From: Dehalococcoidia bacterium
Lineage (GTDB): Bacteria; Chloroflexota; Dehalococcoidia; SHYB01
Direction of reading: 5' to 3'
Assembly: GCA_964291475.2 (NCBI GenBank)
Contig: OZ220062.1
Coordinates: forward strand, 29,358 to 61,357
Length of the DNA stretch: 32,000 nt
Below, piece after piece: positions 1 to 32,000 of the stretch. The translations under genes were made by a program, and so were the position numbers. The notes beneath the pieces were generated by a model. It was not told where the DNA came from. It was given only the letters and a program-made list of their open reading frames with translations, and searched no databases. How positions within the stretch are numbered: position 1 is the first letter of the stretch; the number at the start of each line of letters is the position of its first letter.

Positions 1-1116
1 GCCGAAGGTGTGGAGGCCGACGACCTTGGCGCGGCCCCGGGACTGGAGCGCGCCGGCGGCGACCTCGCTGCCGCTGGCGCTGCCGCCGTTGACGAGGACG
101 ACCATGGGGGTGTCGACGGCGAGGCCGCCCTCGCGGACCTCGTGGTCGGTGCGGTCGCCGTCGGCGTTGATTTCGTACATAACGAGGCCGTCGTCGAAGA
201 ACTCGCTGACGATGTTGACGACGGAGTCGATGACGCCGCCGGGGTTGTTGCGGAGGTCGAGGATGATGCCTTCCGTCTCCTGTTGGTCCAGGTCTGCGAG
301 GACGCCTTCGAACTGCTCGTCGCTGGGGCTGGTGAAGTGGGAGAGGCGGATGCGGGCGATGCCGTCGAGGTCGTAGACCTCCACGGTGCGGCGCTCGATG
401 GTGTCGCGCTCGATTTCGACCAGGACCGGCTCGTCCACGCCGGGGCGGCGGATGGTGATCATGGCGATGGATCCCTTGGGGCCGCGGACGAGGTCGATGG
501 CGTCTCGGAGGGAGAGGCCGGCGAGGGGGGCGCCGTCGACCTCGACGAGGACGTCGCCGGCGAGGACGCCGGCCCGCTCCGCCGGCGAATCGGGCAGGGG
601 CGAGACGATGGTGGGGAAGCCGTCGACCATGGTGACCTCGGCGCCGATGCCGGAGAAGGCGCCCGTGATGAGCTCGCCGGTGACGTGGCCGTACTCGCGG
701 GGGGCGTGGTAGCCGGTGAAGGGGTCGTCGAGGGCGGCGATCATGCTGATGAGGGCGCGCTCGTTGAGGACTTCGAGATCGACCTCTTCGCGAGAGAAGT
801 AGCTCTCTTCGAGGGACTCGTAGACGGCGAGGAGGCCGTCCATGCCCTCGATCTCCATCGTGGAGAGGATGATGCGGGGGTCGAAGCCTTCGGAGGAGAC
901 ACCGAGGCCGTCGAGGAGGCCGGTGACGGCGCCCTCGTTGAGCGCGGTGAGGTCGAGGTTGTCACCGTCGACGTGATGCTCTTCGAGGACTTCGAAAACC
1001 TCGATGGTCTTGGCCATGTCGCGCTCGGCCTGGCTGGGACCAAACAGCGAGCAGGCCGTCGCGGTCAACGCGGCGGCCAAGACGACGGTCAGCAGTGTGA
1101 GACGCCGAATGCTCAT
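1..1116 (-). CDS. S41 family C-terminal processing peptidase (PDZ + tail-specific protease core); C-terminus lies beyond the left window edge
   Basis: Missing from the ORF track because it is open at base 1. Reverse-strand translation from ATG (1116..1114) reads MSIRRLTLLTVVLAAALTATACSLFGPSQ (signal peptide, lipobox-like TATAC). It continues with a PDZ-like block (GAFSGIGAEV..SPLPDSPAERAGVLAGDVLVEVDG) and the S41 core (GIILDLRNNPGG ... VLVNGGSASGSEV). The frame stays open to base 1. The 400-aa '+' ORF 10..1212 is its antisense shadow. Confidence 0.85.
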   Translation of the reverse strand, partial: MSIRRLTLLTVVLAAALTATACSLFGPSQAERDMAKTIEVFEVLEEHHVDGDNLDLTALNEGAVTGLLDGLGVSSEGFDPRIILSTMEIEGMDGLLAVYESLEESYFSREEVDLEVLNERALISMIAALDDPFTGYHAPREYGHVTGELITGAFSGIGAEVTMVDGFPTIVSPLPDSPAERAGVLAGDVLVEVDGAPLAGLSLRDAIDLVRGPKGSIAMITIRRPGVDEPVLVEIERDTIERRTVEVYDLDGIARIRLSHFTSPSDEQFEGVLADLDQQETEGIILDLRNNPGGVIDSVVNIVSEFFDDGLVMYEINADGDRTDHEVREGGLAVDTPMVVLVNGGSASGSEVAAGALQSRGRAKVVGLHTFG

Positions 1117-1151
1117 GGGGCACCTAGGGAAATGGGACGGGGGACACGGTC

Positions 1152-1157
1152 ATTATA
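1152..1157 (-). promoter_or_regulatory. candidate -10 hexamer TATAAT for the S41 peptidase gene
   Basis: The plus-strand 'attata' reads TATAAT on the minus strand, 36 nt upstream of the ATG at 1116. No clear -35. Confidence 0.3.
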
Positions 1158-1450
1158 CGCCGCGTCACCGCATTTCAGCCTTCGGAGCGCCGCGTTTCGG
1201 CGTTTCGCATAGCTTTGCGCCCTGGAGGCTTCGCGCTGTGTCCGGCAGGTGTGACATCGGGGTCTGGCCCGTGTGTTAGGGGGGTGGCTATGATGGCGCG
1301 GCTCAGGTGGAGCCAAAGGGAGCGGAGGGTGACCCGCGGGCGCCTGCGCAGTCTCCGCCAGAATGGGGAAGAAGTTCGGGGACCGTTCCCCAGAGGAGAC
1401 GTGTGCGTAACTGGACTGGGGGCGCGAGGGAGGCGAACTTGGTAACCCTT

Positions 1451-6573: not shown

Positions 6574-7860
6574 CTATGCGCGGGAGCGCTTGGGCTTGGG
6601 CTGCGGTGTGAAGAGGATGATGGCGGTTGAGGCGGCCGTGGCGGCGAAGAAGGCCCACAGGGCGATGTCGTAGCTGCCGGTGCGGTCGTAGATGCGGCCG
6701 GTGACGAAGGGGCCGACCACGATGCCGATCACCATGAGCGTGTTGAACATGCCGCCGATGGTGGCGAAGAAGCGCAGCCCGAAGTAGTCGGCGCGAAGCG
6801 CTGTATTCAAGTTGGCCCCGCTGCCGCCCCAGGCGACGGCGTAGACGAGCGCGAAGGCGATCAGTTGCCAGAACTCTTGCGCGGTGAACAGGATGGCCAA
6901 GGCCCCCAGCTGCACCAGGCCGAGCACGGCGGCGAGCACGTTCTTGGACACGCGGTCGGCGACCACGCCGAGAACGAGCCGGCAGGGGATCGTGGCGACG
7001 GCGAAGATGCTCAGCAGCGCCGCCGCCTCGGCGCCCGAGAACTTCTTCTCCTCGATGAGCGGTATGAAGTGAAGCGAGATGGAGGCGACGACGAACATGC
7101 GCAGCCCGAACCAGAGGACGAGCTTCCAGAAGGCCGGCGTGGCCAGGGCCTCGCGCGGCGTGAAGTCGGCGCTGGGGGCGTAGGGCTCGCGCGCCTGCCC
7201 CTCGGGGAGCGGCTCTCCGTCGGGTACCTCGCCCATGTCCTGAGGCTTGTCGCGCATGACAAAAAGCGCGACGGGAAGGCCGACGGCGAGGATCACGACG
7301 GCGGCGGCGCGCGCGGCGATTCGCCAGTCGAACTCGTCGATGAAGAACTGGAGGAGCGAGACGAAGAGGCCGCCGGCGCCAAGGCCCACCGTCGCTATCG
7401 AGAGCGCGGTCGTACGGCGCCGGCGGAACCAGTGGCCTACGGCCGTGATCGCCGGCGAGAATACGCCGACGCTGACGCCCGGAGAGATCACCAGCGGAAA
7501 GACGAGGAAGACGAAGAGGAGGCTCGGCGCAAGGCTGAGGAGGAAGAAGCCCAGGGCGAAGAGGGGTATGCCCACCAACATCATGCGCCGCGAGCCGAAC
7601 CGGTCGATGAGATAGCCCAGGAGGGGGCCGATGACCGCCTCGCTGCAGGTAGAGGCGGAGAAGACGAGCGCGACGGTGCCCAGGCCCACGTCGAACTCTT
7701 CGGCGAGGGGACGCATGAAGGGCGAGAAGCCGTGGATGTAGAAGCCCCCGCCGAGGGTGGTGACCAGGAGGGTGCCGCCGACCACCCACCAGCCGTAGAA
7801 GACGGGACGCCCGCGGAACGTGATCTCCGGCGGTCCGAACCGCCGCCGTCGTTGTTCCAA
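6574..7860 (-). CDS. MFS transporter (MFS_1; OFA-like), tandem paralogue 1
   Basis: Has the loop 2-3 motif GYLIDRFGSRR and 12-TM-type hydrophobicity. Collinear with the gene at 8047..9336. Start placed at TTG 7860, preceded by AAGGAGG with an 8-nt spacer. This SD-spacer-TTG block is the best conserved stretch between the two paralogues' 5' regions, so the 484-aa track ORF is probably over-extended. Confidence 0.8.
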   Translation of the reverse strand: MEQRRRRFGPPEITFRGRPVFYGWWVVGGTLLVTTLGGGFYIHGFSPFMRPLAEEFDVGLGTVALVFSASTCSEAVIGPLLGYLIDRFGSRRMMLVGIPLFALGFFLLSLAPSLLFVFLVFPLVISPGVSVGVFSPAITAVGHWFRRRRTTALSIATVGLGAGGLFVSLLQFFIDEFDWRIAARAAAVVILAVGLPVALFVMRDKPQDMGEVPDGEPLPEGQAREPYAPSADFTPREALATPAFWKLVLWFGLRMFVVASISLHFIPLIEEKKFSGAEAAALLSIFAVATIPCRLVLGVVADRVSKNVLAAVLGLVQLGALAILFTAQEFWQLIAFALVYAVAWGGSGANLNTALRADYFGLRFFATIGGMFNTLMVIGIVVGPFVTGRIYDRTGSYDIALWAFFAATAASTAIILFTPQPKPKRSRA

Positions 7861-7903
7861 GCGGCGGGCCTCCTTCGAGCGCGCGGATGGTGCAGGGGGA
7901 GCG

Positions 7904-7912
7904 AGCCTAGCA
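7904..7912 (-). promoter_or_regulatory. candidate extended -10 promoter TGCTAGGCT
   Basis: Reverse complement of 'agcctagca'. It lies 43 nt upstream of the TTG at 7860, inside the over-extended version of the ORF. Confidence 0.35.
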
Positions 7913-8046
7913 CGGGCGCCGATGGCGCTCAATGAGTCTGGTCCGGGAGGTTGGCCGCGGATGGACCGGGGAGTGGGAGGGCCGGAGGGCGCCCCCGCGG
8001 GAGGAGCCACCCTGCCGGCACGAGTCATGCAAGAGAGGAACGGTGG

Positions 8047-9336
8047 CTAGGGGCGGGAGCGCTTGGGCTTGGGACGCGGTGTGAGGAGGATGATCGTGGC
8101 GGAGGCCGCCGTCGCGGCGAGGAAGGCCCATATGGCGAGGGTGTAGCTACCCGTCCGGTCGTAGATGAGCCCGGTGGTAAAGGGGCCGACAATGATGCCG
8201 ATGATCACCACCGTGTTGATCATGCCGCCGATGGTGGCGAAGAAGCGCAACCCGAAGTAGTCGGCCCGAAGCGCCGTGATCAAGGTGGCCCCGCCCCCGC
8301 CCCAGGCGATGGCGTAGACGAGCACGAAGGCGATGAGATGCCAGAACTCGTGCGCGTTTAACAGAATCACCAGTGCGCCGATTTGCACCAGGCCGAGCGC
8401 GGCGGCGAGCCGGTTCTTCCGGACACGGTCGGTGACCGCGCCAAGGACGAGCCGGCAGGGGATGGTGGCCACGGCGAAGATGCTCAGCAGCACCGCCGCC
8501 TGCGCGGCGGAGAAGTCCTTGGCTTCGATAAGCCGTATGAAGTGTATCGAGATGGAGGCGATGACGAACATGCGCAGCCCGAACCAGAACACGATGCCCC
8601 AGAAGCCCAGCGAGCCCAGGGCCTCGCGCGGAGTGAGGTCGCCGGCCGGCGGGACGGCGCGGGCCCCGGGCCGTTCTTCCGGGGGTGGTCCTCCGTCGGG
8701 GACTAGCCCTTCGTCCGCGGGGCGGTCGCGTACGAGGAAGAACGCGGCGGGAAGGCCGACGGCGGCAATCACAACAGCCGCGGCACGGGCCGCGACTCGC
8801 CAATCGTACGCGTCGATGAAGTACTGGAGGAACGAGACCAGGAGGCCGCCGACACCGAAGCCAACCGTCGCAATGGAGAGGGCGACGGCCCGACGGCGAT
8901 GGAACCAGTGGCTCACCGCCGTGGCGCTGGAGGCGAAGACGCCCATATTCACTCCTGGAGAGATGACGACCGCGATCGCGATGACGACGACGAGGATGCT
9001 GGGCGCGTGGCTAAGGAGAAAGAACCCGGCGGCGAAGAGAGGAATGCCCGCCAGCATCACGCGCCGCGAGCCGAAGCGGTCGATGAGGTAGCCGACGAAG
9101 GGGCCGAGGACCGCCTCGCTGCCCGCGGCGGCGGCGAAGAAGAGCGTGGCCGTCGCTAAGCCTACGTCGAACTCCTCGGCGAGGGGTCCCAGGAAGGCCG
9201 AGAAGCCGTGGATGTAGAAACCGCCGGCGAGGGTGCTAAGCAGCGAGCCGGCGCCGACCACCCACCAGCCGTAGAAGACGGGACGCCCGTGGAACGTGAT
9301 CTCCGGCGGTCCCAGCCGCCGACGCCGTTGTTCCAA
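8047..9336 (-). CDS. MFS transporter (MFS_1; OFA-like), tandem paralogue 2
   Basis: GYLIDRFGSRR motif. Collinear similarity to 6574..7860 along the whole length. AAGGAGG-8 nt-TTG start at 9336, as in its paralogue. Confidence 0.8.
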   Translation of the reverse strand: MEQRRRRLGPPEITFHGRPVFYGWWVVGAGSLLSTLAGGFYIHGFSAFLGPLAEEFDVGLATATLFFAAAAGSEAVLGPFVGYLIDRFGSRRVMLAGIPLFAAGFFLLSHAPSILVVVIAIAVVISPGVNMGVFASSATAVSHWFHRRRAVALSIATVGFGVGGLLVSFLQYFIDAYDWRVAARAAAVVIAAVGLPAAFFLVRDRPADEGLVPDGGPPPEERPGARAVPPAGDLTPREALGSLGFWGIVFWFGLRMFVIASISIHFIRLIEAKDFSAAQAAVLLSIFAVATIPCRLVLGAVTDRVRKNRLAAALGLVQIGALVILLNAHEFWHLIAFVLVYAIAWGGGGATLITALRADYFGLRFFATIGGMINTVVIIGIIVGPFTTGLIYDRTGSYTLAIWAFLAATAASATIILLTPRPKPKRSRP

Positions 9337-9489
9337 GCGGCGCGCCTCCTTCGAGTGAGCGGGTGCTTCAGGGGGAGCGGGCGGACGACGAGCGCTCGTG
9401 GCGCTCACCCTGTACAGGCTTCGATGGGTGACGGTACCATAGACCGCGCCCGCGGCTCGCGGCAATCATCATCGCCCCGGAGGCCTCTT

Positions 9490-14870: not shown

Positions 14871-15701
14871 CTACGCCTTGGCGATGCCGCTGCTGGACTT
14901 CATGGAGTCCACCGTCATGCCCATGATGGCGCTGCCGGTGGTGAGCTCGGAGTGGGCGTGGGCGAGCTGGTGCATGTCGAAGACGGCTTGCATGGCGGTG
15001 CGCTGGCCCTGGTGGTCGAGGGTGCGGTTGACCGACTGCTTGGCCATGGCGAGGGCGAAGGCGGGCATCTGCGCGATCTGACGGGCGAGGGTCATGGTCT
15101 CCTCGACGAGGTCGTCGAGGGGGACGACGCGGTTGACCATGCCGAGGCGGTGGGCTTCTTCGGCGCCGAGGAAGAGGCCGGTGAAGAGCATCTCCTTGGC
15201 CTTGCGGTGGCCGACCTCCCAGGGGTGGGCGTGGTACTCGACGCCGCCCACGCCCATGCTGACGACGGGGTCGCTGAACTGGGCGTTGTCGGCGGCGATG
15301 ATGAGGTCGCAGGGCCAGCAGAGCATGAGGCCGCCGGCGATGGTCTTGCCGTGGACGGCGGCGATGGTGGGCTTGGGAATGTCGCGCCAGCGCTGGCTGA
15401 GGCCGAGGTAGAACTCGGACTCCCACCAGTAGCGGTCGGCGGCGCCCTCCCAGTCCTGGGCGTTGTTGGCGCGCCAGCGCTTCGCTTCCTCGCTGCCGAT
15501 GTCGTGGCCGGAGGAGAAGTGCGGCCCGTTGGCCTTGAGGACGATGACCTTGACCTCTTTGTCCTGCTCGCCCATGCGCCAGGCTTGGTCGAGCTCTTCG
15601 AGGAAGCCCTGGTGCTGGGCGTTGCGGGTCTCGGGCCGGTTGAGGGTGATGACGCCGACGTTGTCGTCCTTTTCGTAGATGATCCAGTTGAGGTCCGTCA
15701 T
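14871..15701 (-). CDS. enoyl-CoA hydratase/isomerase (crotonase) family protein
   Basis: MTDLNWIIYEKDDNVGVITLNRPETRNA, VIVLKANGPHFSSGHD, AAVHGKTIAGG. Start moved to ATG 15701 (AAAGGAG RBS). The track start lies in the promoter region. Confidence 0.85.
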   Translation of the reverse strand: MTDLNWIIYEKDDNVGVITLNRPETRNAQHQGFLEELDQAWRMGEQDKEVKVIVLKANGPHFSSGHDIGSEEAKRWRANNAQDWEGAADRYWWESEFYLGLSQRWRDIPKPTIAAVHGKTIAGGLMLCWPCDLIIAADNAQFSDPVVSMGVGGVEYHAHPWEVGHRKAKEMLFTGLFLGAEEAHRLGMVNRVVPLDDLVEETMTLARQIAQMPAFALAMAKQSVNRTLDHQGQRTAMQAVFDMHQLAHAHSELTTGSAIMGMTVDSMKSSSGIAKA

Positions 15702-15761
15702 CTGGCTCCTTTCGGGTGTTCCGGGCCGCCGGAAGGGGGCGGGAGGCCGGAGGTGCACGGA

Positions 15762-15770
15762 AGTATAGCA
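15762..15770 (-). promoter_or_regulatory. candidate extended -10 promoter TGCTATACT (crotonase gene)
   Basis: Reverse complement of 'agtatagca'. It lies 61 nt upstream of the ATG at 15701 and back-to-back with the plus-strand promoter 11 nt away. Confidence 0.4.
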
Positions 15771-15780
15771 CCGGGGCGCG

Positions 15781-15789
15781 TGCTAGAAT
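15781..15789 (+). promoter_or_regulatory. candidate extended -10 promoter TGCTAGAAT (BKACE-SDR operon)
   Basis: TGnTAGAAT lies 22 nt upstream of the ATG at 15812, with a GGAGG RBS in between. Confidence 0.45.
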
Positions 15790-15811
15790 CGCGGCCTTCA
15801 GGAGGGGCGCG

Positions 15812-16693
15812 ATGCAGAAGATGATGATCGAGGCGGCGATCAACGAGCTGGCGTCGAAGCGGCACAACCCCAACGTGCCCTACGGGCCGGAGGAGATTGC
15901 CGAGGACGCTCTGAAGTGCATCGAGGCGGGGGCGACGATCGTCCACTTCCACGCCCGCCACCCGGAGACCGGGGCGCAGCTGTGGACCGATGCCCAGGTC
16001 TACGGCGAGGCGATGGCGATGATCCGCCGGGAGCGGCCCGACGCGCTGCTGTACCCGTCGTACCCCGGCGCGCGGCCGAAGGAGGAGCGCTTCGCACACA
16101 TCGGGGCGCTGGCCAACGACCCCGCGGCGAAGCTCGACCTGGCGACGTTCGACGTCGGGGCGACGAACAACTCGGGCATCGACCCCGACACCGGGGCATT
16201 CCGTCCCGCCGGGACCTACGTCAACAGCCACGACGACCTGATCTACTTCATGGAGCAGTCGCGGGAGCTTGGGATCGCGTTCAGCCTCGGGGTGCGGGAC
16301 GTGGGGCACATGCGGCACGTCAACGAGTACCTGCGGATGGGGTTGGCCTCGGAGCCGTTGGTGCTGAAGATCTTTATGTCTACCGGCAACGCCCAGGGGC
16401 CCTATCCCAACGTCAAAGGGCTTTCGATGTACCTGGACATGATCCCGCCGGGGGTGGAGTCGCACTGGTTCATCACGATGTTCCGGTCGCCGGAGGAGGC
16501 GGGCCGGATGTACATGCTGGCCGCGGCGATGGGCGGCCACATCCGGATCGGGCTCGGCGACACGCCGGTGATCGATGGGCGGCAGCCCACGAACGCCGAG
16601 CTGGTGAAGGAGGCCGTCGACCTGGCCCACAAGGCGGGGCGCGAGGTGGCGACACTCGCCGAGGGGCGCGCGATGATGGGGATGACGGCCTGA
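15812..16693 (+). CDS. BKACE family enzyme (3-keto-5-aminohexanoate cleavage enzyme-like, DUF849)
   Basis: MIEAAINE, PYGPEEIAEDALKCIEAGATIVHFHAR, MGGHIRIGLGDT. These are the Zn/substrate motifs of the beta-keto acid cleavage enzyme family. Start at ATG 15812. Confidence 0.85.
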   Translation: MQKMMIEAAINELASKRHNPNVPYGPEEIAEDALKCIEAGATIVHFHARHPETGAQLWTDAQVYGEAMAMIRRERPDALLYPSYPGARPKEERFAHIGALANDPAAKLDLATFDVGATNNSGIDPDTGAFRPAGTYVNSHDDLIYFMEQSRELGIAFSLGVRDVGHMRHVNEYLRMGLASEPLVLKIFMSTGNAQGPYPNVKGLSMYLDMIPPGVESHWFITMFRSPEEAGRMYMLAAAMGGHIRIGLGDTPVIDGRQPTNAELVKEAVDLAHKAGREVATLAEGRAMMGMTA

Positions 16694-16696
16694 CCC

Positions 16697-17494
16697 ATGC
16701 ACATCCGCTTCGACGGCAAGACGGTGATCGTCACCGGCGCGGGCAAGGGCATCGGGAAGCGGGCCGCGCTAAGCTTCGCGGAGCTCGGCGCGTCGGTCGC
16801 GATCTGCTCGCGGACGCAGTCCGAGATCGACGCCGCGGCGAGCGAGATCGAGGGCGCCGGCGGGAAGGCGCTGGCGGTGGTCACCGACGTCGCGGACGAG
16901 GAACAGGTCAAGGCGTTCGTCGAGCGCACCGCGGAGACGTTCGGCGGCGTCGACGTCTTGATCAACAACGCGGCGGTCCTCGGAGCCCCTGGGGGCTATG
17001 CGGTCGATCTCGTCGACATGCCGTTCGAGGAGTTCGACCTCGTCTACGGCATCAACCTGCGCGGCCCCGCGCTCTTCGCCAAGTACGTCCTGCCTCACAT
17101 GATCCGCCGGAAGAAGGGCGCGATCATCAACGTGTCGTCGGACGTCATCCGCAGGGGGATGCGGGGCCGGTCGCACTACACCGCGGCGAAGATGGGCGTC
17201 ATTGGGCTTACCTACTCCCTTGCGTGGGAGGGCGCCGAGCATGGGATACGAACGAACTGCATCGTTCCCGGGTCCGTGGCCACCGAGATGCTGGACGGCG
17301 TCCAGCAACGGTTGGCGAGGGAAGAGGGTGTGACCATCGAGGAAGTGCGGGCCCGCTTCGCCGCCGTCTCGCCGGAGAAGCGCGTCGTCAGCACGGATGA
17401 GGTGGCCGACCTGATGATCTACCTGGCGTCGGATGCGTCGAGCGGCGTCAACGGGCAGAGCCTCTTTATCAACGCCGCCTCGTACATGCAGTAG
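16697..17494 (+). CDS. SDR family oxidoreductase
   Basis: TVIVTGAGKGIGKRAA (TGxxxGxG), NNAA, catalytic YTAAK, PGSVATEM. Starts 3 nt after the BKACE stop. Confidence 0.85.
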   Translation: MHIRFDGKTVIVTGAGKGIGKRAALSFAELGASVAICSRTQSEIDAAASEIEGAGGKALAVVTDVADEEQVKAFVERTAETFGGVDVLINNAAVLGAPGGYAVDLVDMPFEEFDLVYGINLRGPALFAKYVLPHMIRRKKGAIINVSSDVIRRGMRGRSHYTAAKMGVIGLTYSLAWEGAEHGIRTNCIVPGSVATEMLDGVQQRLAREEGVTIEEVRARFAAVSPEKRVVSTDEVADLMIYLASDASSGVNGQSLFINAASYMQ

Positions 17495-23275: not shown

Positions 23276-25689
23276 CTAGTCGGCGTAGAGGACGACGGGG
23301 GCGGGGATGGTGGGCGGCGGCGAGTCGGCGACGAGGCCCTTCTCGTAGAGGTCCGCTATCCGTTCCTCCGATAGACCGAGCAGGCCGCGCAGGACCTCGG
23401 CGTTGTGCTCGCCGTAGAGGGGCGAGGGCATCCGGATCCGCGCCGGCGAGGCGGGGAGCTTCCATGGCGCGCCCGGCATCGGCCAGAGTCCCATTTCGGC
23501 GTGGGGGACGCGCTCGTAGAAGCCGCGGGCGTGGAAGTGGAGGTTGCTCACCAGCTCCCAGTTCTCGAGCACGGGAGCGGCGGCGATGCCGTGCGCTTGC
23601 AGCAGGTCGGCGGCCTCGTGGTGGTCGAAGCCGGAGGTCCAGGCGGCGATGGCCTCGTCGATGTCGTCGTGGCGGGCGCGGCGCTCCTCGACGGAAGCCA
23701 GGGCGGGGTCGGCGAGGGCGGGGTCGGCGATGAGCGCCACAGGCGGGCCCACTCTTCGTCCGAGCGCACACAGAGCACGAGCCAGGAGTCGTCGCCCATC
23801 GTGGGGTAGCAGCCCTGGGGGGCGAAGCGGCGGTGCCGGTTGCCTCGGCGCTCAGGGAGGACGCCGGTCGCCTGGTACTCGATGAGCGGCTCGGCGAAGA
23901 AGATGATGCCGTTCTCCTCCAGCGAGAGGTCGATGTACTGGCCCTCGCCGGTGCGGTCGCGGTGTTCGAGGGCGGCGAGGACGGCGGCGGCGGTGTGCGC
24001 GGCGGTGATGGGGTCGGCGTAGAACATGCCGGTGTGGTAGGGGCGGGCCTCGTCGCGGTAGCCCATGACGGCGGAGAGGCCGCAGGATGCCTCGATGTTG
24101 GCCCCGTAGGCCACGTAGTCGCGCGCCGGGCCGGTGTGCCCGAAGGCGGAGATGGCGGCCATGATGAGCCGGGGGTTGACCTCGCGCAGGGTCTCGTAGT
24201 CGAGCTTCAGGTTGGTCATGACGCGGGGGCTGTTGTTCTCGATGAAGACGTCGGCCTCGCGGATGAGGTCGAGGAAGACGGCGCGGCCCTCCGGGTCGGC
24301 GACGTCGAGGGTGAGCGAGCGCTTGTTGCGGTGGAGCTTGTTGAAGTAGGGCGAGCGGTTGTAGTGGTGCTTCAGCGGCTGCTTGCCGGGGTAGATGACA
24401 GTGCGGCCCAGGGGCCGGTTGGGGTTTTCGACCTTGATGACGTCGGCGCCGAGGTCGCCGAGGAGGCGTCCGGCGTAAGGTCCCGCCCAGTTGCCGGTGA
24501 TCTCGACGACGCGCAGGCCGGTGAGGGGGAGCTTGGCGTCGGCGTAGCCGTCGGGCGCGGCGGGGCGGGGACGGGGAGCGCGCTCCGGCCAGCCGGCGGC
24601 TTCGCTCTCCGTAGGCGGGGCGGGCCGGCGGACCGACGCCGGAGTCCGGCTGAGCTTGTAGGGGAAGCCGGGGAGGGTCATCGGCTTGCCGTCGTCGCCG
24701 CCGCCCTCGATCCACCAGTCGCGGGCCTGAATGACGGGGGAGCGCAGCAGGTCGGCGGCGTCGTAGACCGGGGTCGCGGGAATGCGCAGCTCTTGGGCCT
24801 GGGCGAAGACCTCCTCCTTGGTGTGGGCGAGGAGCCAGCCGGCGACCAGTTGGGCCAGGAAGTCCTCGTGCTCCTTCCAGCCCTCGCGGGTGGCGAAGCG
24901 GGGGTCGCCAACGAGGTCGGGGCGGTCGACGAGGGTGAAGAGCGCGGGGTCGAAGCGCGGCGTCATGAAGCGGACCCAGCCGTCGGCGCAGCGCAGGGGT
25001 TCGGCCTTCCGGCGGCGCTCGACGATGCCCTGGTGCGTCCAGTTGCCCAGCGTCCAGATGTGCGCCGAAAGCAGCGCCTCAACGGCGGAGACGTCGACGT
25101 GCTGGCCGCGCCCCGTGATCGCCGCCCAACGCAGCGCCGCAAGCGATGCGACGGCGCCCTGCGCTCCGGCGTGGAACATCGACTGGTTGTAGGGCACCAT
25201 CAGCGGCTCCCTGGCGGCGTCGCCGCCGAAGAAGAGGTAGCCGCCGAGGGCCCAGTCAACGATCTCCTCGCTCTCCCACTGGGCGTAGGGGCCGTATTGC
25301 CCGAAGTGGGTGATTGAGGTCAGGGTCAGCGCGGGATTTGCCTGGGCAAGGTCGTCGAAGGCGAGGCCCAAGGCGGCGAGCTCGCCGGGCTTGCCGCTTT
25401 CGACGACGAGGTCGGCCCCGGCGGCAAGCTCGCGGAAACGGGCGCGGCCCGCCTCGGTTGCCAGGTTGACGGACACCCGTTCTTTGTTGCCGCCGAGGTA
25501 GGCGAAGAGCGCGCCGGCGCGGTCGGCGGCGCCGGCGGTCGGGGGCAGAAGCCGCAGGGGATGGCCCGTCGGCGGCTCGCCGATGAGGACGTCGGCGCCA
25601 AGGTCGGCGAGCAGGCGCGTGCAGTACGACCCGGCGACGTTGCTGCTTATGTCGAGGACGCGGAGGCCCTCCAGGGCGAGCGGCGGCAT
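23276..25689 (-). pseudogene. tandem-fused double family-III (CaiB/BaiF) CoA-transferase, reading frame broken once near 23740
   Basis: Module 1 is LEGLRVLDISSNVAGSYCTRLLADLGADV ... GFPYKLSRTP. A linker follows, then module 2, LTGLRVVEITGNWAGPYAGRLLGDLGADVIKVE ... CVRSDEEWA. Module 2 continues only in another frame (ORF 23276..23752: ALIADPALADP...RHDDIDEAIAAWT...LLQAHGIAAAPVLE...SPLYGEHNAEVL). This could equally be an assembly error in an intact gene. Confidence 0.75.
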
Positions 25690-25752
25690 GGCGGGCGCAA
25701 GGATACCGGAAGGGCGGCTAATCGGGCGAGGGCGGGCGCGGCGGCGTTGCGG
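25688..25752 (+). repeat. 65-bp direct repeat, copy R1 (covers the CoA-transferase start codon and upstream region)
   Basis: atggcgggcgcaaggataccggaagggcggctaatcgggcgagggcgggcgcggcggcgttgcgg. 63 of 65 positions are identical to 26423..26487. Confidence 0.9.
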
Positions 25753-25772
25753 CCAAGGTGGCTGGACCAGGT

Positions 25773-26387
25773 CTAGGATGTCACCGAGATGGCCTGCTTC
25801 CGGTAGGTCTCGTCCCGCACCTGTGCAACGAGAAAGTGGGCTAGGTCCTCGCGGCCAATCCGTCCCACCCTTCCGACGTTGTCAGCGGTATAGCGGCCGG
25901 AGGCTGGTACGTCGGTCAGGATGGCGGCGCGAACAATGGTCCAATCGAGAGAGCTCTCCCGGACCAGTCCTTCCTGGGCGGTGTGGTCGGCGTAGATATT
26001 GCGCAGTAGCGTCCGGAACATGAGACGGGGTAGCCAGGGGACTTGCCGCCAACTCTCGCCCACCCCCGCCGCGGACAAGACAACGAGGCGGCCGACACTG
26101 TGATCGCACATCCCAGCCACCACGTTCGCGGTGCCAGCGGAAAGGGTCGTCCTATCCCGCAGGCCGTTGCTTCCCAAGGCAATGATGGCCGCATCGTGAC
26201 CGGCAAGCGCCGCGGCCACCGACTCGCTATCCATCACGTCTCCCTGGGCAACCTCCAGGGCGGCATCCTGCCGGTCAATTTTGTGCGCCGAGCGGGTGAA
26301 GGCCGTGACCCGGTAGCCCTGCGCCAGGGCCTGCCGGCATACCTGCTGTCCCGTTTTTCCCGTGGCCCCAAACACAATGACTCGCAT
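25773..26387 (-). CDS. NAD(P)H-binding NmrA/atypical-SDR-like protein
   Basis: MRVIVFGATGKTGQQVCRQALAQGYRVTAFTRS (NAD(P)-binding GxxGxxG), about 204 aa, AAGGATGGAG RBS. Only this C-terminal part of the 735-aa track ORF looks real. Confidence 0.8.
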   Translation of the reverse strand: MRVIVFGATGKTGQQVCRQALAQGYRVTAFTRSAHKIDRQDAALEVAQGDVMDSESVAAALAGHDAAIIALGSNGLRDRTTLSAGTANVVAGMCDHSVGRLVVLSAAGVGESWRQVPWLPRLMFRTLLRNIYADHTAQEGLVRESSLDWTIVRAAILTDVPASGRYTADNVGRVGRIGREDLAHFLVAQVRDETYRKQAISVTS

Positions 26388-26422: not shown

Positions 26423-26487
26423 ATGGCGGGCGCAAGGATACCGGAAGGGCGGCTATCCGGGCGAGGGCGGGCGCGGCGGCGTTGCGG
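26423..26487 (+). repeat. 65-bp direct repeat, copy R2 (covers the last 11 codons and stop of the DHA2 gene)
   Basis: atggcgggcgcaaggataccggaagggcggctatccgggcgagggcgggcgcggcggcgttgcgg. Confidence 0.9.
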
Positions 26488-28036
26488 TGTCTTCGGGGTA
26501 GTACTGCTCGCGGGCGGGCATGAACTTCGCCACGAGGAGCGCGCCGAAGACGGCGATGCCGCTGCCGGCGAGTATGGCGTAGCCGAGTGCGTCGGCGAAG
26601 GCGGCGCGGGCGGCGAGGTCGAGCGACGCGGCGGCGGGGCCGTCGAGGGCTCCGGCGATGCGAACGGCCGCGCCGACGGAGTCGCCGGCGGCGTCGACTT
26701 GGCCTGGGGAAAGGCCCGCGATGCCGTCGAGGGTGTCCGAGATGTTGCTGGAGTAAAGCGAGGCGAAGATGGAGCCGATGACGGCGACGCCCAAGGCCCC
26801 GCCGACCTGCCGCACCACGTCGTTCATCGCCGAGCCGACGCCGGCGTCGGCGCGGGGTACGGCGCCCATGACGGCGTTGGTCGAGGGCGCCATGATCAAC
26901 CCCATCGACGTAGAGATGGACAAGATCACGGCGCCGATGACCGCGTAGGGGGTGTCTACGTCGTAGACGTTGATCACGGAAAGGGCGCCGGCAAGCATGA
27001 GCAGGCCCAAGGCGACGGTGCGCTTGGTGCCGATCCGCTCGTTGAGCCGCTCTCCGGCACGGGAGCCGATGGCGACTCCCGCCGCGATGGGGAGCATGGC
27101 CATCCCGGCTTCCAGCGGCGAGAAGCCTTTGACGAATTGCAGGTATTGCGTCATGCCGAACGCCATCCCAAAGAGGGCGAAGAAGGCACAGCCGAGCGCC
27201 GCGGCGCCCGCGCAAAAGCGGAAGCGGCGGAGGAAGCGGAAGTCGAAGAGGGGATTGGACGTGCGAAGCTCGTAGACGGCGAAGGCAACGGCAAGGACCG
27301 CCGCCGCCACAAAGCCGCCGATGACGAGCGGGGCCGTCCACCCGAGCTCCGGCGCTTCGATGATCGCGAAGACGAGGATGGCGACGGAGGCGGTGGAGAG
27401 CACGGCGCCGGGGACGTCGAGGCGGCGGGGGACGGCGTCCTTGCTTTCGGGCACCAGGCGCACGCCCAAGGCAAGCGCGGCAAGCGTGAACGGGACGTTG
27501 ATCAGGAAGACGGCCTCCCACGAGAAGGCCTCGATCAGCGAGCCTCCCACAAGGGGGCCGAGACCGACGCCGATGCCGCCCACGGCGGCCCAGATCGCGA
27601 TGGCCTTGGCGCGTTCGGGGCCGACGAAGACGTCGGTGATGATCGACAGGGTCGACGGCATGATCATCGCGCCGCCGACGCCCATGCCGGCCCGCGCCGC
27701 GATGACGTGCGCGGCACTCTCCGCGAAGATGGCGCTGAAGGCGGCGGCGCTGAAGACTATGAGGCCGAGCCGCAGCATCATGGCGCGGCCGTGGCGGTCG
27801 CCCAGGCTTCCCATCGTCAGCAGGAGGCCGGCGAAGACGAGGATGTAGGAGTCGACCATCCACTGGAGTGTGGATGCGCCGGCGTCGAACTCGCGTTGCA
27901 GCGTCGGAATGGCGACGTTGAGGACGGTGTTGTCCATCCCGATGATGACGAGGCTCAGGGAGAGCGTCCCCAGCGTCCACCAGCGGAGGGGGCTTGCTCG
28001 AAGCTCATCGGCGGTGAGGGCGCGGAGTCGGATCAA
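26453..28036 (-). CDS. MFS transporter, DHA2 (EmrB/QacA-type, 14-TM) family, tandem paralogue A
   Basis: RWWTLGTLSLSLVIIGMDNTVLNVAIPTLQREFDA, LVFAGLLLTMGSLGDRHGR. 527 aa. TTG start with GGAAGGA RBS. Confidence 0.85.
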   Translation of the reverse strand: MIRLRALTADELRASPLRWWTLGTLSLSLVIIGMDNTVLNVAIPTLQREFDAGASTLQWMVDSYILVFAGLLLTMGSLGDRHGRAMMLRLGLIVFSAAAFSAIFAESAAHVIAARAGMGVGGAMIMPSTLSIITDVFVGPERAKAIAIWAAVGGIGVGLGPLVGGSLIEAFSWEAVFLINVPFTLAALALGVRLVPESKDAVPRRLDVPGAVLSTASVAILVFAIIEAPELGWTAPLVIGGFVAAAVLAVAFAVYELRTSNPLFDFRFLRRFRFCAGAAALGCAFFALFGMAFGMTQYLQFVKGFSPLEAGMAMLPIAAGVAIGSRAGERLNERIGTKRTVALGLLMLAGALSVINVYDVDTPYAVIGAVILSISTSMGLIMAPSTNAVMGAVPRADAGVGSAMNDVVRQVGGALGVAVIGSIFASLYSSNISDTLDGIAGLSPGQVDAAGDSVGAAVRIAGALDGPAAASLDLAARAAFADALGYAILAGSGIAVFGALLVAKFMPAREQYYPEDTATPPRPPSPG

Positions 28037-28063: not shown

Positions 28064-29611
28064 CTAGTCGCCGTAGTCCTGGTGGCGGGAGGGCATGAAT
28101 CGGGCGATGAAGAGGGCCGCGACGAAGGTGACGCCGCCGCCGGCCATGATGGCGATGCCCATGGCGTCGGCGAAGTTGGAGCGGGCGGCGACGTCGAGGG
28201 TCGCGCCCGCCGGGCCGCCGATGTCGGCGGCGATGGTGGTGGCCAGGCCCACGGCGTCGGAGGCGACGTCGATCTGGTCTGGGGAGAGCACGCCGAGGTT
28301 GTCTAGCGTGTCCGCCATCTTGCCCGCGTAGAGGGAGGTCATGACCGAGCCGATCACGGCGATGCCGAGGGCGCCGGCGATCTGTCTGGCGATATCGTTC
28401 ACGGCGGAGCCGACGCCGGCGTCGGAGCGGGGAGAGGCGCCCATGATGGCGTCGATCGACGGCGGCATGACGAGGCCTAGCGAGAACTCGTTGTAGAAGA
28501 TGACGAAGGCGATCACGGCGAGGGGAGTACCCAGGTTATAGAAGCCGATGGCGGTGAACCCGCCGGTCAACATCAGCAGGCCCAAGGTCACCGACCCCTT
28601 GATGCCAACCATCCCGACGAGGCGCTGCCCGGCGCGCACACCGGTAGGGAACCCCACGGCAATGGGAAGCATCAACGCGCCCGCCTCCAACGGGGAAAGC
28701 TCCTTCACAAACTGCAGGTACTGCGTCATGCCGAACATCATTCCGAAGAGGGCGAAGAAGGAGAGGCCGAGCGCGGCGACGCCGGCAGTGAAGAGCGGAC
28801 GGAGGAAGAAGCGCAGGTTGAGGAGGGGATAGGGGGTGCGAAGCTGGTAGATGACGAACGCCGCCCCCAGCACGGCAGCCGCGGCGAATCCGCCGAAGAC
28901 CGTCGGGTCGTTCCACCCATGGGCGGGGACCCGGATGATGGCGAAGACGAGGATGGTGGTGGCGGCGGTGGAGAGGGCGGCCCCGGGGAGATCGAGGGGG
29001 CGGTAGGCGGGGTCTTTGGTGTCGGGGACGAGCCTGAACCCTGAGAGCAGCGCGGCGAGAGCGACCAGAATGGTGACGATGAAGACCGCCTTCCAGGAGA
29101 AGGCGACGATCAGCGCTCCACCGGTCAGGGGCCCGACACCGACGCCGACGCCGCCGATCGCCACCCAGATCGCGATAGCCTTGGCCCGCTCGGGGCCGGC
29201 GAAGATCTCGTTGACGTTGGAGAGCGTGCAGGGCAGGAACATGGCCCCGCCCGCCCCCATGACGGCCCGCGCCAGGATCAACTGCAGGGCGCTCCCAGAA
29301 AAGATGGCCCCCAGCGAGCCGATGATGAAGACGACGAGCCCCAGGCGCATCAGCCGCGCTCGTCCGAAACGGTCGCCGAGGTTGCCCATGGTGAGGAGCA
29401 GCCCGGCGAAGGCGAGGATGTGGGCGGTCGCGATCCACTGGAGCATGGAGGCGCTGGCGTCGAACTCGCGCTGCAGGGTGGGCAGCGAAATGGAGAGGAG
29501 GGTGTTGTCCATCCCCGTGATGACAGCGCTCATCGAGAGGGCACCGAGCGCCCACCAGCGCAGGCGGCTGCCGCGAAGCTCCTCGAGCTTGAGGGCGGTC
29601 AGCTTGAACAC
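28064..29611 (-). CDS. MFS transporter, DHA2 (EmrB/QacA-type, 14-TM) family, tandem paralogue B
   Basis: RWWALGALSMSAVITGMDNTLLSISLPTLQREFDA, LAFAGLLLTMGNLGDRFGR. 515 aa. GTG start. Collinear with paralogue A. Confidence 0.85.
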   Translation of the reverse strand: MFKLTALKLEELRGSRLRWWALGALSMSAVITGMDNTLLSISLPTLQREFDASASMLQWIATAHILAFAGLLLTMGNLGDRFGRARLMRLGLVVFIIGSLGAIFSGSALQLILARAVMGAGGAMFLPCTLSNVNEIFAGPERAKAIAIWVAIGGVGVGVGPLTGGALIVAFSWKAVFIVTILVALAALLSGFRLVPDTKDPAYRPLDLPGAALSTAATTILVFAIIRVPAHGWNDPTVFGGFAAAAVLGAAFVIYQLRTPYPLLNLRFFLRPLFTAGVAALGLSFFALFGMMFGMTQYLQFVKELSPLEAGALMLPIAVGFPTGVRAGQRLVGMVGIKGSVTLGLLMLTGGFTAIGFYNLGTPLAVIAFVIFYNEFSLGLVMPPSIDAIMGASPRSDAGVGSAVNDIARQIAGALGIAVIGSVMTSLYAGKMADTLDNLGVLSPDQIDVASDAVGLATTIAADIGGPAGATLDVAARSNFADAMGIAIMAGGGVTFVAALFIARFMPSRHQDYGD

Positions 29612-29641: not shown

Positions 29642-30175
29642 CTATGCGCCGCCCTCGAGGAGGACGCTCCGCACCTGGGGCCAGGCCCGTTCGAGGTGGG
29701 CTTCGAGACGCTCCTCGTCGAGGCTTTCGGCATAGGGGTAGTCGATGACCACGAAGGGGTAGTCGGGGTAGCCGTGGCGCTTGGCCATGGTGCGCCCGAT
29801 GGTAAGGATGAGCTTATCGGGGCCGATGGCGGCGACGGGGATGCCGCGGTCCTCGAGCCGGGTCGCGTCGGCCGCAAGGGCCGACGAGCAGGAGCCTCAG
29901 TCGCCGACGCCGGTGATGACGGCGTCGCAAGCGGCGGCGATTTCTTCGAGCAGCTCTGGCGGCATGGGCTCGCCGTGGTAGACCTTCTGCCGCCACGACG
30001 TCTCCAATGGCTCGTACTCCTCGACCAGCCGGTCGCGGATGCGCGTAAGGAGTCGGTCGCCGTGGACGCGGTGGTTCCAGAGGATGCCGACGCGCTTGCC
30101 GTCGAAGGTGTCGAGGCGCGGGGCGAGCCGCGGGCCGCTGTCGCCGGGCTCGGAGACGGGAACGTAGACCTTCAT
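29642..30175 (-). CDS. predicted selenoprotein with U-G-S-C motif (177 aa; TGA at 29899..29897 read as Sec)
   Basis: The track ORF ends ..AVITGVGD-TGA. The same frame continues GSCSSALAADATRLEDRGIPVAAIGPDKLILTIGRTMAKRHGYPDYPFVVIDYPYAESLDEERLEAHLERAWPQVRSVLLEGGA-TAG, 84 codons with near-uniform G/C third positions and no nearby start/RBS for an independent gene. A hairpin begins after a 10-nt spacer downstream of the TGA. From memory, the motif matches the NCBI family name 'UGSC family (seleno)protein'. Confidence 0.7.
29866..29886 (-). promoter_or_regulatory. candidate bacterial SECIS hairpin
   Basis: mRNA: UGA-GGCUCCUGCU-CGUCGGCC-CUUGC-GGCCGACG. An 8-bp perfect stem and a 5-nt loop containing U and G, with the stem starting after a 10-nt spacer downstream of the UGA. 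Confidence 0.45.
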
Positions 30176-30198
30176 CGCGGCGGTTCTCTCCTAGACCG

Positions 30199-31293
30199 CT
30201 ATTCCTTGACCGGCACGGTGACCGGCTCCGTCCCTTGGGGGTAGGGGCCGACGTAGGCGCCGTAGTTCCCCGCCTCGCCGCCGCAGGCCATGATGAGGAA
30301 GTCGAGGGTGCGGTCGTACTCGGCCTGAGTGTAGAGGATATCGATCAGCGCGGGGTCGTGGCGCATGGGGATGAGGTTGGTGTCGTCGCCGGGCTCGATG
30401 GGGGGAGCGGTCGGCGAGAGGCGCGTGCCGTAGCGCTCCCAGCGCCCGTCGACCTTGAGGCTGGCCACCGAGCGGCGGGTGTGCTGGGTGAGGTAGGTCT
30501 TCACGTCGTCCTGCGTCCAGCCGGCATCGATGAAGTGCTGCTGGAAGACCGGGGCCATCATCACCACGAACGTCCCCAGGGTGAAGAAGCCGTAGGCGAT
30601 GCGCTGGGCGATGAGCTCGCAGAGGTCGGTGGGGTCGGTGAAGTTGGGGGTGACGAACTGGAGGACGCCGTCCATGGTGCCGACGACGGTGACGGCGCTG
30701 GTCCCGCCGTCGAGCCCGCGCTGCTGGTGGACGCGGGGCCAGGGACTGTCCTCGCGCTCGGCGGCGCAGAACGACCAGCGGTTGGGGTTCCCCATCGTGC
30801 CGCGCTGGACGCCGCCGACCTTGGCGCCGAAGCAGTTGGCCATGGTCAGGCTCACCGCCCGGCCGATGGTGGCATTGGCGCGGTTCCCCGTCGGGCCGAG
30901 CAGGTACTGACCGGTGTTCATTTCCAGGCGCTCGACGATGGGGCCGTTGACGATGACGAGCGGCCACGGGCTGCCCAGGCTCGCCATGTGGTTCATCCGG
31001 AAGGCGGGGTCGGTCAGGCCCTCGAAGGCGGCGACGAGCACGGGCATGTACTCCGGCTTGCAGCCGGCCATGACGGCGTTGATCGCCAGCTTCTCGGCGG
31101 TGAGAGCGGAGGCGCGGGCCTCGTAGGAGCCGATGACGTCATCGGGGTGGAGGGCGGCGTGGGCGAGGCAGGCCTCGATGCGGTCTTGGGTCGGGGCGAC
31201 GATGGGGAGGCCGTCGGTCCAGCCCTGGTCCCAGAAGTACTCCATGGCGGCGTACTCGTCGGTTACGTCAACCGTGCTCGACCGCAGGTCCAT
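30199..31293 (-). CDS. conserved-looking hypothetical protein (364 aa), first gene of the selenoprotein operon
   Basis: GGAGG RBS, high GC3. N-terminal block YFWDQGWTDGLPIVAPTQDRIEACL and AINAVMAGCKPEYMPVLVAAFEG. I cannot assign a family. Its stop lies 23 nt before the UGSC gene start. Confidence 0.7.
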   Translation of the reverse strand: MDLRSSTVDVTDEYAAMEYFWDQGWTDGLPIVAPTQDRIEACLAHAALHPDDVIGSYEARASALTAEKLAINAVMAGCKPEYMPVLVAAFEGLTDPAFRMNHMASLGSPWPLVIVNGPIVERLEMNTGQYLLGPTGNRANATIGRAVSLTMANCFGAKVGGVQRGTMGNPNRWSFCAAEREDSPWPRVHQQRGLDGGTSAVTVVGTMDGVLQFVTPNFTDPTDLCELIAQRIAYGFFTLGTFVVMMAPVFQQHFIDAGWTQDDVKTYLTQHTRRSVASLKVDGRWERYGTRLSPTAPPIEPGDDTNLIPMRHDPALIDILYTQAEYDRTLDFLIMACGGEAGNYGAYVGPYPQGTEPVTVPVKE

Positions 31294-31325: not shown

Positions 31326-31334
31326 ATTGTAGCA
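31326..31334 (-). promoter_or_regulatory. candidate extended -10 promoter TGCTACAAT for the 31293..22326 gene array
   Basis: Reverse complement of 'attgtagca'. It lies 32 nt upstream of the ATG at 31293. Same 9-mer as at 5636..5644. Confidence 0.45.
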
Positions 31335-31392
31335 AAGGGCGCCGCCCGCTCTGGTAGCGCGGGGGCGGCGATTCTCTTACCATGCCTCCGCC

Positions 31393-32000
31393 ATGCAACA
31401 GCCCTGCGACGGGATAACCGTCGTCGACTTCAGCCAGAGCCTCGCCGGGGCGCTCGCCACGATGTTCCTCGCCGACACCGGCGCCGAGGTGATCACCGTG
31501 GAGCCGCCGGGCGGCGATCCGCTTCGGGCGCACCCCGCTCACCTGCAATGGCGGCGCGGGCAGAAGAGCGTGGTCCTCGACCTGAAGTCGGAGGATGACC
31601 GTCAGACTGCGCGGAGGCTCGCGGCGCGGGCCGACGCGGTGGTCGAGGCGTTCCGCCCTGGGGTCGCCGAGCGGCTTGGTATCGGTTACGAGGCGCTGTC
31701 CGCGGAGAACCCGGGGCTGGTGTACGCGGCGATCCGGGGTTTCGGCGAGCGCAGCCCCTACGCCGGAGTGAAAGGGTACGAGGGGATCGTCGCGGCGAAG
31801 GCGGGGCTGCTGCTGGGGCGGCATCCCTGGCGGCGCGAGGGGCCGATGTTCGACGCCATACCGCGTATGACCCTCGGTGCGGCCCACCTGGCGGCTCAGG
31901 GCGTTTTGGCGGCGCTCTGGGCCCGCGACCGCACCGGCCGGGGTGCCCGGATCGAGGCGACGCTGCTCGCCGGCGCCGCGGCCCACTCGCTCAATGGCTG
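31393..32000 (+). CDS. family-III (CaiB/BaiF) CoA-transferase, N-terminal part (runs off the right window edge)
   Basis: Missing from the ORF track (open-ended). Translation from the ATG at 31393 reads MQQPCDGITVVDFSQSLAGALATMFLADTGAEVITVEPPGGDPLR...VVEAFRPGVAERLGIGYEALSAENPGLVYAAIRGFG, the typical N-terminal Rossmann-like module. Confidence 0.85.
   Translation, partial: MQQPCDGITVVDFSQSLAGALATMFLADTGAEVITVEPPGGDPLRAHPAHLQWRRGQKSVVLDLKSEDDRQTARRLAARADAVVEAFRPGVAERLGIGYEALSAENPGLVYAAIRGFGERSPYAGVKGYEGIVAAKAGLLLGRHPWRREGPMFDAIPRMTLGAAHLAAQGVLAALWARDRTGRGARIEATLLAGAAAHSLNG

Follow-up and report, generated by a model that had tools for sequence, protein, structure and literature searches.

A predicted UGSC-family selenoprotein gene with an in-frame TGA codon and a conserved partner gene in a Dehalococcoidia bacterium

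Introduction

The UGSC family ('UGSC-containing protein' of Zhang and Gladyshev) has been known as a predicted selenoprotein family since at least 2008, and a 'Trx-like fold' (Trx, thioredoxin) was guessed for it at that time; it shares the U-x-x-C motif with the GrdB/PrdB proteins (pfam07355) in the Global Ocean Sampling (GOS) table, and both belonged to the selenoprotein families found most abundantly in aquatic metagenomes (PMC2398784). Here, we analyzed a stretch of 32,000 nucleotides from a Dehalococcoidia bacterium (contig OZ220062.1 of assembly GCA_964291475.2, positions 29,358 to 61,357), hereafter referred to as the window, in which positions 30175..29642 of the reverse strand very probably constitute a single gene, encoding a UGSC-family selenoprotein of 177 aa, that reads an in-frame UGA as selenocysteine (Sec), uses a hairpin as its Sec insertion sequence (SECIS), and is linked to a partner gene.

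The class to which the source organism belongs makes heavy use of Sec. Dehalococcoidia metagenome-assembled genomes (MAGs) rank among the bacteria richest in selenoproteins, and BSepDB lists MAGs of the same assembly series with 46–49 selenoproteins (PMC13326102), although this lends support at the class level only. Bacterial SECIS (bSECIS) elements are described by a model with a loop of 3–9 nt, a stem of 4–16 bp, a UGA-to-loop distance of 16–37 nt, and a folding energy of −7.5 kcal/mol or lower, together with the rule that the apical loop has a G at its first or second position; some bSECIS elements depart from this model (PMC13188914).

The gene in the window resembles the described UGSC family in its full-length profile match, the D-U-G-S-C motif, the alternation of Sec and Cys, the hairpin immediately following the UGA, and its length of about 180 aa. 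The clade to which it belongs differs from the family in the following respects. First, its identity is at most 42% to Cys-type members and 28–45% to most Sec-type members. Second, it reads U-G-S-C-S-S-A where the common motif is U-G-S-C-S-S-C, so that the third Cys is missing. Third, its apical loop is CUUGC, whereas the common UGSC loop is AGUNU.

Gene structure and coding signal across the TGA codon

A first-pass annotation made from the nucleotide sequence had reported an open reading frame (ORF) that ends in ...ITGVGD-TGA and continues in the same frame to a TAG, giving a product of 177 aa, and this was borne out by the sequence and its translation. The corresponding features are listed below.

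29642..30175, (−) strand: coding sequence (CDS) of the predicted UGSC-family selenoprotein, 177 aa, comprising 92 codons, the Sec-TGA, and 84 codons
29644..29642, (−) strand: TAG stop codon of the UGSC CDS, read from sequence and translation
29897..29899, (−) strand: TGA, predicted Sec codon (residue 93; motif D-U-G-S-C); homologues of the Cys type have an invariant Cys here
29888..29890, (−) strand: TGC codon of Cys96 in the U-x-x-C motif, an invariant alignment column; putative resolving Cys
30186..30192, (−) strand: Shine-Dalgarno-like AGGAGAG, 10–12 nt 5' of the ATG at 30175; putative ribosome-binding site (RBS)

The ORF starts at the ATG at 30175, and its first part reads MKVYVPVSEPGD...CDAVITGVGD, followed by the TGA at 29899..29897. 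Past the TGA, the frame reads GSCSSALAADATRLEDRG... for 84 codons up to the TAG (the same 84 codons are also given as GSCSSALAADATRLEDRGIPVAAIGPDKL...). The ORF list of the window held only the 92-aa piece of this gene, and no ORF of at least 50 aa starting in the same frame 3' of the TGA was present in it. Reading of the frame likewise agreed with the earlier remark that no Met occurs past the TGA before codon 37.

The chance of an open stretch of 84 codons at 68% GC was estimated from base composition to be approximately 16%, and such a stretch is weak evidence alone. The third-position G/C bias noted beforehand was retained beyond the TGA: GC contents at codon positions 1, 2, and 3 (GC1/2/3), taken over 50 codons on each side of the TGA, were 0.72/0.42/0.88 on the 5' side and 0.66/0.54/0.94 on the 3' side. 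When the ORFs of the window were re-called with TAG and TAA as the only stops, the TGA of the UGSC gene was the sole TGA with a coding signal on both flanks.

Standard gene callers were expected to split or truncate such a gene, and the calls in its relatives show exactly this pattern. In L247, L248, and L251, a call of 92/93 aa was followed by one of 66–76 aa, and in L252/L253 the 92-aa fragment alone was called. Both kinds of called fragments (92/93 and 66–76 aa) matched the Pfam family PF24696.

Family membership and conservation of the TGA codon

Profile and protein searches were conducted with the 177-aa product after replacing U with C. PF24696 ('UGSC family') matched with 149.8 bits (cut-off, 25 bits), with residues 4–173 aligned to positions 3–171 of the 172-position profile across the TGA, and NCBIfam NF041046 ('UGSC family (seleno)protein') matched with 110 bits (E = 9.8e-32), with residues 25–172 aligned to positions 1–146 of 147. 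The proposed search of the U-to-C product thus returned full-length matches that span the TGA and have Cys aligned to it. In an alignment of 31 Cys-type homologues, which are single proteins of 180–195 aa, the TGA column is an invariant Cys within an invariant TGVGD-C-GSCS block. The name 'UGSC family (seleno)protein', given in the first-pass annotation, proved to be real and is carried by some of the protein-database homologues. The relatives of the joined product in the protein database were of the Cys type only, showed at most 42% identity, and originated mostly from actinobacterial or soil sources.

Because gene callers truncate the Sec forms, genomes were scanned at the DNA level for T-G-V-G-D-TGA-G-S-C, which retrieved at least 120 loci (L001–L120). 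Of the 120 loci listed, 119 were true homologues with the TGA at the same codon; 115 of the alignments span the Sec position, and the median number of codons past the TGA was 85. Dehalococcoidia or other Chloroflexota accounted for 63 of the 120, and the other carriers listed were Alphaproteobacteria (Pseudolabrys and Xanthobacteraceae), Acidobacteriota, 'Ca. Multivorans', and two cultured Bacillaceae. Cultured carriers include Robertmurraya sp. 2P01SA (NZ_CP154845.1) and Mesobacillus maritimus PL-B2. With Cys-type homologues on one side and at least 119 TGA-type loci on the other, the suspected Sec/Cys alternation at this codon was supported.

The protein in the window was 98.9, 78, and 68% identical to those of L012 (a Dehalococcoidia MAG), L016, and L058, respectively. 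Compared with L012, the part past the TGA contained 76 identical codons, 9 synonymous changes, and no non-synonymous change. Compared with L058, the ratio of synonymous to non-synonymous changes was similar on both sides (18/25 past the TGA and 22/38 before it). These counts indicate that the part past the TGA is under protein-level selection, and the lack of downstream conservation that had been named as evidence against a single gene was not found; rather, purifying selection acts on the codons past the TGA. The TGA is also kept in independent assemblies of the clade (L247, L248, L251, and L252/L253), with 84–88 codons beyond it, which means that it is not a sequencing error. The first-pass annotation had further treated homologues terminating at the GVGD position as a counterargument, but this guide turned out to be misleading: 92-aa fragments of this kind do exist in databases and are artifacts of gene calling.

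A second UGSC paralogue was observed in L247 (a 95%-identical relative) at 1..1329, in DNA whose counterpart would lie some 4 kb past the end of the window (position 32000). It is also split at a TGA, reads U-G-S-C-S-S-S-S-L-H-D, and has the canonical loop AGUUU; a 347-aa ORF without a Pfam match is located 3' of it.

A conserved hairpin directly past the TGA codon

The first-pass annotation had placed a GC hairpin at the position of a bSECIS, and a stem-loop was indeed found there.

29866..29886, (−) strand: SECIS-like stem-loop starting 11 nt past the UGA; GUCGGCC-CUUGC-GGCCGAC at 29885..29867
29885..29879, (−) strand: 5' arm of the stem
29878..29874, (−) strand: loop CUUGC
29873..29867, (−) strand: 3' arm of the stem

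The stem has 7 bp, or 8 bp with an extra C-G pair (29886/29866), and a folding energy of −15.3 kcal/mol; with a loop of 5 nt and a UGA-to-loop distance of 18 nt, its geometry is within the ranges of the bSECIS model. Folding of the 66-nt region was no better than that of shuffled sequences (z = 0.28), and the energy of the single sequence was therefore rejected as evidence, so that the significance of the hairpin rests on the relatives.

For scoring, the register was kept constant (spacer of 11 nt, stem of 7 bp, and loop of 5 nt), and the hairpin was counted as present when at least 6 of the 7 pairs could form. Of 106 unique Sec-type sequences, 103 had the hairpin; among 113 unique Cys-type sequences, which were taken from a metagenome scan, no more than 3 did. 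A separate count with the same register and threshold gave 106 of 109 unique Sec-type sequences. The Cys-type DNA was more GC-rich than the Sec-type DNA (78 and 62%, respectively), yet the hairpin was rarer there. The stem differs between clades (UCGUGC/GCACGA, UCGGGC/GCUCGA, UCGGCC/GGCCGA, and UCAUGG/CCAUGA), and the encoded peptide varies with it (SSCSVHD, TSGSVLD, SSALAAD, and TSWSVHD). Among 57 sequences, 91.7% of the cells were paired, and five of the seven pairs had changed on both sides; the covariation score was 0.227 as opposed to 0.077 in shuffles, none of 500 shuffles reached it, and slid registers gave only 14–49% pairing. The stem was retained in nine members of the window's clade, G·U variants included.

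In being located within the coding sequence and directly past the UGA, the hairpin resembles the bSECIS of the Escherichia coli fdhF type. Most UGSC genes have UGC-AGUGU-GCA at this place, which resembles the apical part of fdhF, GC-AGGUCU-GC, and the AGUGU/AGUCU/AGUUU loops typical of most other UGSC genes follow the loop-G rule. The lineage carries both loop types, as the L247 paralogue has AGUUU beside the CUUGC of the clade. The loop contains CTT, a rare Leu codon, whose strict conservation was also considered; it turned out to be only partial (CTT in eight of nine members and CTG in L247). A scan of the loci of close relatives for other in-frame TGAs, which could have given the SECIS repertoire of the lineage, detected none.

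A partner gene coupled to UGSC

A second gene is situated immediately upstream of the UGSC gene.

30199..31293, (−) strand: partner gene, 364 aa; its stop is 23 nt 5' of the UGSC start

Given this short distance, the two genes probably form one operon. A homologue of the partner was present in 87 of the 120 listed Sec-type loci, mostly directly upstream of UGSC, and approximately half of the remaining loci have too little upstream DNA to judge. In Cys-type actinobacterial loci, the partner is located 3' of UGSC, i.e., in the opposite order, and is accompanied by an ORF of about 82 aa with a CxxC motif. In L005, from the cultured Bacillaceae Robertmurraya sp. 2P01SA, the TGA-bearing UGSC and the partner are fused in one ORF. 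This is probably the 'UGSC/Unknown_1 fusion' described previously (PMC2398784). A second candidate for such a fusion, L098, was rejected because a frame check revealed a spurious high-GC extension of the ORF. The coupling is not absolute: in L249 (3001..4332), some 240 nt that seem to be non-coding come after the partner gene (62% identical at the protein level), and no UGSC gene is present there.

The partner had no Pfam or NCBIfam match even at E ≤ 10, and its homologues in the database, at least 7,983 in number, are all unnamed; no database record with the exact sequence of the partner in the window was found. Its AlphaFold2 (AF2) model had a mean predicted local distance difference test score (pLDDT) of 89.7 and a predicted template modeling score (pTM) of 0.91. 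In a Foldseek search, Toblerone-fold cyclic amide hydrolases and YjgF-like proteins occupied ranks 1–16 and were the sole recurring matches, but these were weak (best E = 5.7e-3; template modeling (TM) score, ~0.2; root-mean-square deviation, 12–13 Å). A PDB sequence search with the partner returned nothing. When thirds of its alignment were compared with hhalign, no internal repeat emerged, which leaves the resemblance to the Toblerone fold weak. The similar size of about 360 aa to AtzD, barbiturase, and pseudo-trimeric YjgF-like enzymes is accordingly a lead, not a classification.

The selenoproteins of glycine reductase (GrdB) and proline reductase (PrdB) act with a separately encoded partner subunit. 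GRDB showed no sequence match to UGSC at E ≤ 10 (the Pfam search returned UGSC only) and was absent from the PDB sequence and fold matches, and the UGSC partner has no detectable similarity to PrdA/GrdE. The likeness is therefore taken as a functional analogy only, with no homology claimed.

Predicted fold of UGSC

The UGSC fold was modeled with AF2 on the homologue P0001 (pLDDT, 89.7). The model has the order β1-α1-β2-α2-β3-α3-β4-α4-β5-α5, with the Cys/Sec position at the β3/α3 junction, and its best Foldseek matches in the PDB were flavodoxin-like domains, lumazine synthase, and the RecJ DHH domain (TM score, 0.4–0.48). The model therefore suggests that the fold of UGSC is flavodoxin/Rossmann-like and not Trx-like. 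UGSC does resemble the CxxC/UxxC oxidoreductases of the Trx fold in having U/C-x-x-C at the N-terminus of a helix. However, the Trx fold is a β-α-β-α-β-β-α arrangement with a mixed sheet, whereas the UGSC model is a sandwich of alternating β and α elements (five strands and five helices), and there were no thioredoxins among its PDB matches; the guess of a Trx-like fold is thus not supported. The N-terminal segment of about 20 residues (DPTG...APR) is conserved, yet it is of low confidence in the model, a pattern that would fit ordering upon partner binding.

Stop-codon usage

Among the 22 high-GC3 ORFs of the window (68% GC), TAG was used as the stop codon 19–20 times, TGA twice, and TAA never. 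TGA normally dominates among stop codons at 68% GC. Stop codons were compared with those at L001–L120 and L247–L252, where the TAG/TGA/TAA counts were 98/98/49 in the pooled Dehalococcoidia loci, 51/136/20 in other taxa, and 19/8/7 in close relatives; for the TAG bias of the window relative to the pooled Dehalococcoidia loci, the binomial P was about 2e-6. It is possibly linked to heavy use of Sec-UGA or to the status of release factor 2 (RF2). TAG-rich stops might suggest a general reassignment of TGA, but this reading was rejected, as a coding signal on both sides was seen at no other TGA of the window.

In the region 15692..17494 ((+) strand), one of the two TGA stops ends the gene of a BKACE protein, and a short-chain dehydrogenase/reductase (SDR) gene directly follows it in frame. 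A read-through fusion of the two was considered, but both Pfam matches are complete, and they are hence read as two genes.

Proposed mechanism and alternative explanations

In the reading that we consider very probable, the UGA at 29899..29897 would be decoded as Sec and not as a stop, and the stem-loop at 29886..29866 would act as the bSECIS that brings SelB·GTP·Sec-tRNA(Sec) to the ribosome; if selenium or SelB were lacking, translation would stop at the N-terminal fragment of 92 aa. Sec93 is predicted to lie at the end of β3 and the N-terminus of α3, three residues before Cys96, and this U-x-x-C geometry would suit either a reversible selenenylsulfide redox center or a selenolate nucleophile. 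UGSC most likely acts together with the 364-aa partner, perhaps in a physical complex in which the partner would probably be the catalytic or substrate-binding subunit, and the substrate may belong to the metabolism of small organic acids or CoA esters.

Several points weigh against this proposal. None of selA, selB, selD, and selC was found within the 32-kb window, in which Rfam at gathering thresholds gave no match and ARAGORN no tRNA. The NF041046 match does not reach the 125 bits set as the equivalog cut-off for that profile, which places the UGSC protein of the window in a divergent, although clearly related, subclade. The clade deviates from the loop-G rule, with CUUGC in eight of nine members and CUGGC in L247, and the conservation of the stem could partly mirror that of the encoded peptide. 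The AF2 model was made of a Cys-type homologue, 42% identical, instead of the protein in the window itself. Finally, the function of the UGSC family is uncharacterized, in agreement with the earlier statement that its biochemical role is undescribed, and nearly all such proteins were found bioinformatically (PMC13188914).

The strongest of the rival explanations, although unlikely, is that the UGA is decoded as Cys or Trp by a near-cognate or suppressor tRNA, or that UGA termination is weak throughout the lineage. The rarity of TGA as a stop in the window (2 of 21–22 genes) would agree with this, as would a loop that is not of the consensus SelB-binding type. However, no other in-frame TGA of the window has a coding signal on both sides, which argues against a general reassignment of UGA, and simple suppression would need no conserved hairpin at the distance of a SECIS. 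In addition, the position is that of the Sec/Cys redox site in a family for which selenoprotein status has been predicted repeatedly (PMC2398784), and the class is rich in Sec (PMC13326102).

It is less probable still that the automatic annotation is right and that a 92-aa product is followed by a separate short gene or by non-coding DNA. Gene callers do return a 92-aa fragment, usually followed by one of 66–76 aa, and a 92-aa product may truly arise under selenium limitation; against this, the two fragments match one Pfam domain that is complete only when they are joined, the downstream fragment has no start codon before codon 37 and no RBS, and the Cys-type homologues are single proteins of 180–195 aa. 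The least credible alternative is a pseudogene, in which a Cys-type UGSC gene would have acquired a nonsense mutation (TGC or TGT to TGA) and the 84 codons beyond would be decaying; it would need one base change only, and Cys-type homologues exist, but the comparative data have effectively refuted it, with the TGA kept in at least 119 species and in all members of the window's clade down to ~61% partner identity, no non-synonymous as against 9 synonymous changes relative to L012 and a GC3 of 0.94 past the TGA, and a hairpin specific to TGA-type genes.

Implications

That the UGSC gene encodes a selenoprotein would in itself add little biology, given that UGSC has counted among the major families of predicted selenoproteins since 2008 and that Dehalococcoidia are known users of Sec; what is new here is a member from a divergent clade of this known family. 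We tentatively suggest, as a possibility more doubtful than the selenoprotein reading itself, that UGSC, rather than acting alone as a thiol oxidoreductase, is the small selenium subunit of an undescribed two-component enzyme, in a lineage that combines decoding of Sec through two loop types with rare TGA stops that ease competition by RF2. If so, the presence of CUUGC and AGUUU loops in one lineage would mean that its SelB recognizes loops in a relaxed or dual manner, and the scarcity of TGA stops might lower the competition of RF2 at Sec-UGA codons.

As for annotation, gene callers cut UGSC into two 'hypothetical' fragments, and the Sec-type members of the family are largely missing from protein databases; this splitting explains why the protein search found relatives of at most 42% identity only, despite a relative with 98.9% identity at the DNA level. 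Leads on the function of UGSC include the unnamed conserved partner, the fusion in a cultivable Bacillaceae, the flavodoxin-like fold, and the clade with a non-consensus SECIS loop.

Genomic neighborhood

The genes neighboring the UGSC-partner pair varied among the loci and included HIBADH-like dehydrogenases (29), FlK-type thioesterases (14), SDRs (13), metallo-beta-lactamases (11), NuoF-like proteins (7), and family III CoA-transferases, a range that may point to small-acid or CoA-ester metabolism. Large family III CoA-transferases (777–895 aa) flank the pair both in the window (23548..25881, (−) strand, and 31333..31998, (+) strand) and in the relatives L247 (1311..3743), L248 (6059..8746), and L252 (5049..6988); the copy in the window has two matched CoA_transf_3 stretches. 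This arrangement hints that the pair may act on a CoA ester or an organic acid.

The CxxC ORF of about 82 aa in the Cys-type loci has the motif PEAC-x-x-CLVP and no Pfam match (L121, 6714..6974; L123, 6649..6897; L125, 6703..6948). It may be a third component there; next to the pair in the window, no equivalent was found.

The window also contains two tandem pairs of major facilitator superfamily (MFS) transporter genes on the reverse strand, at 6574..8046 and 8047..9465 and at 26453..28036 and 28064..29611. The latter pair, which is DHA2/EmrB-like, is located directly 3' of UGSC and may share a transcript with it, and the same pair comes after UGSC in L247.

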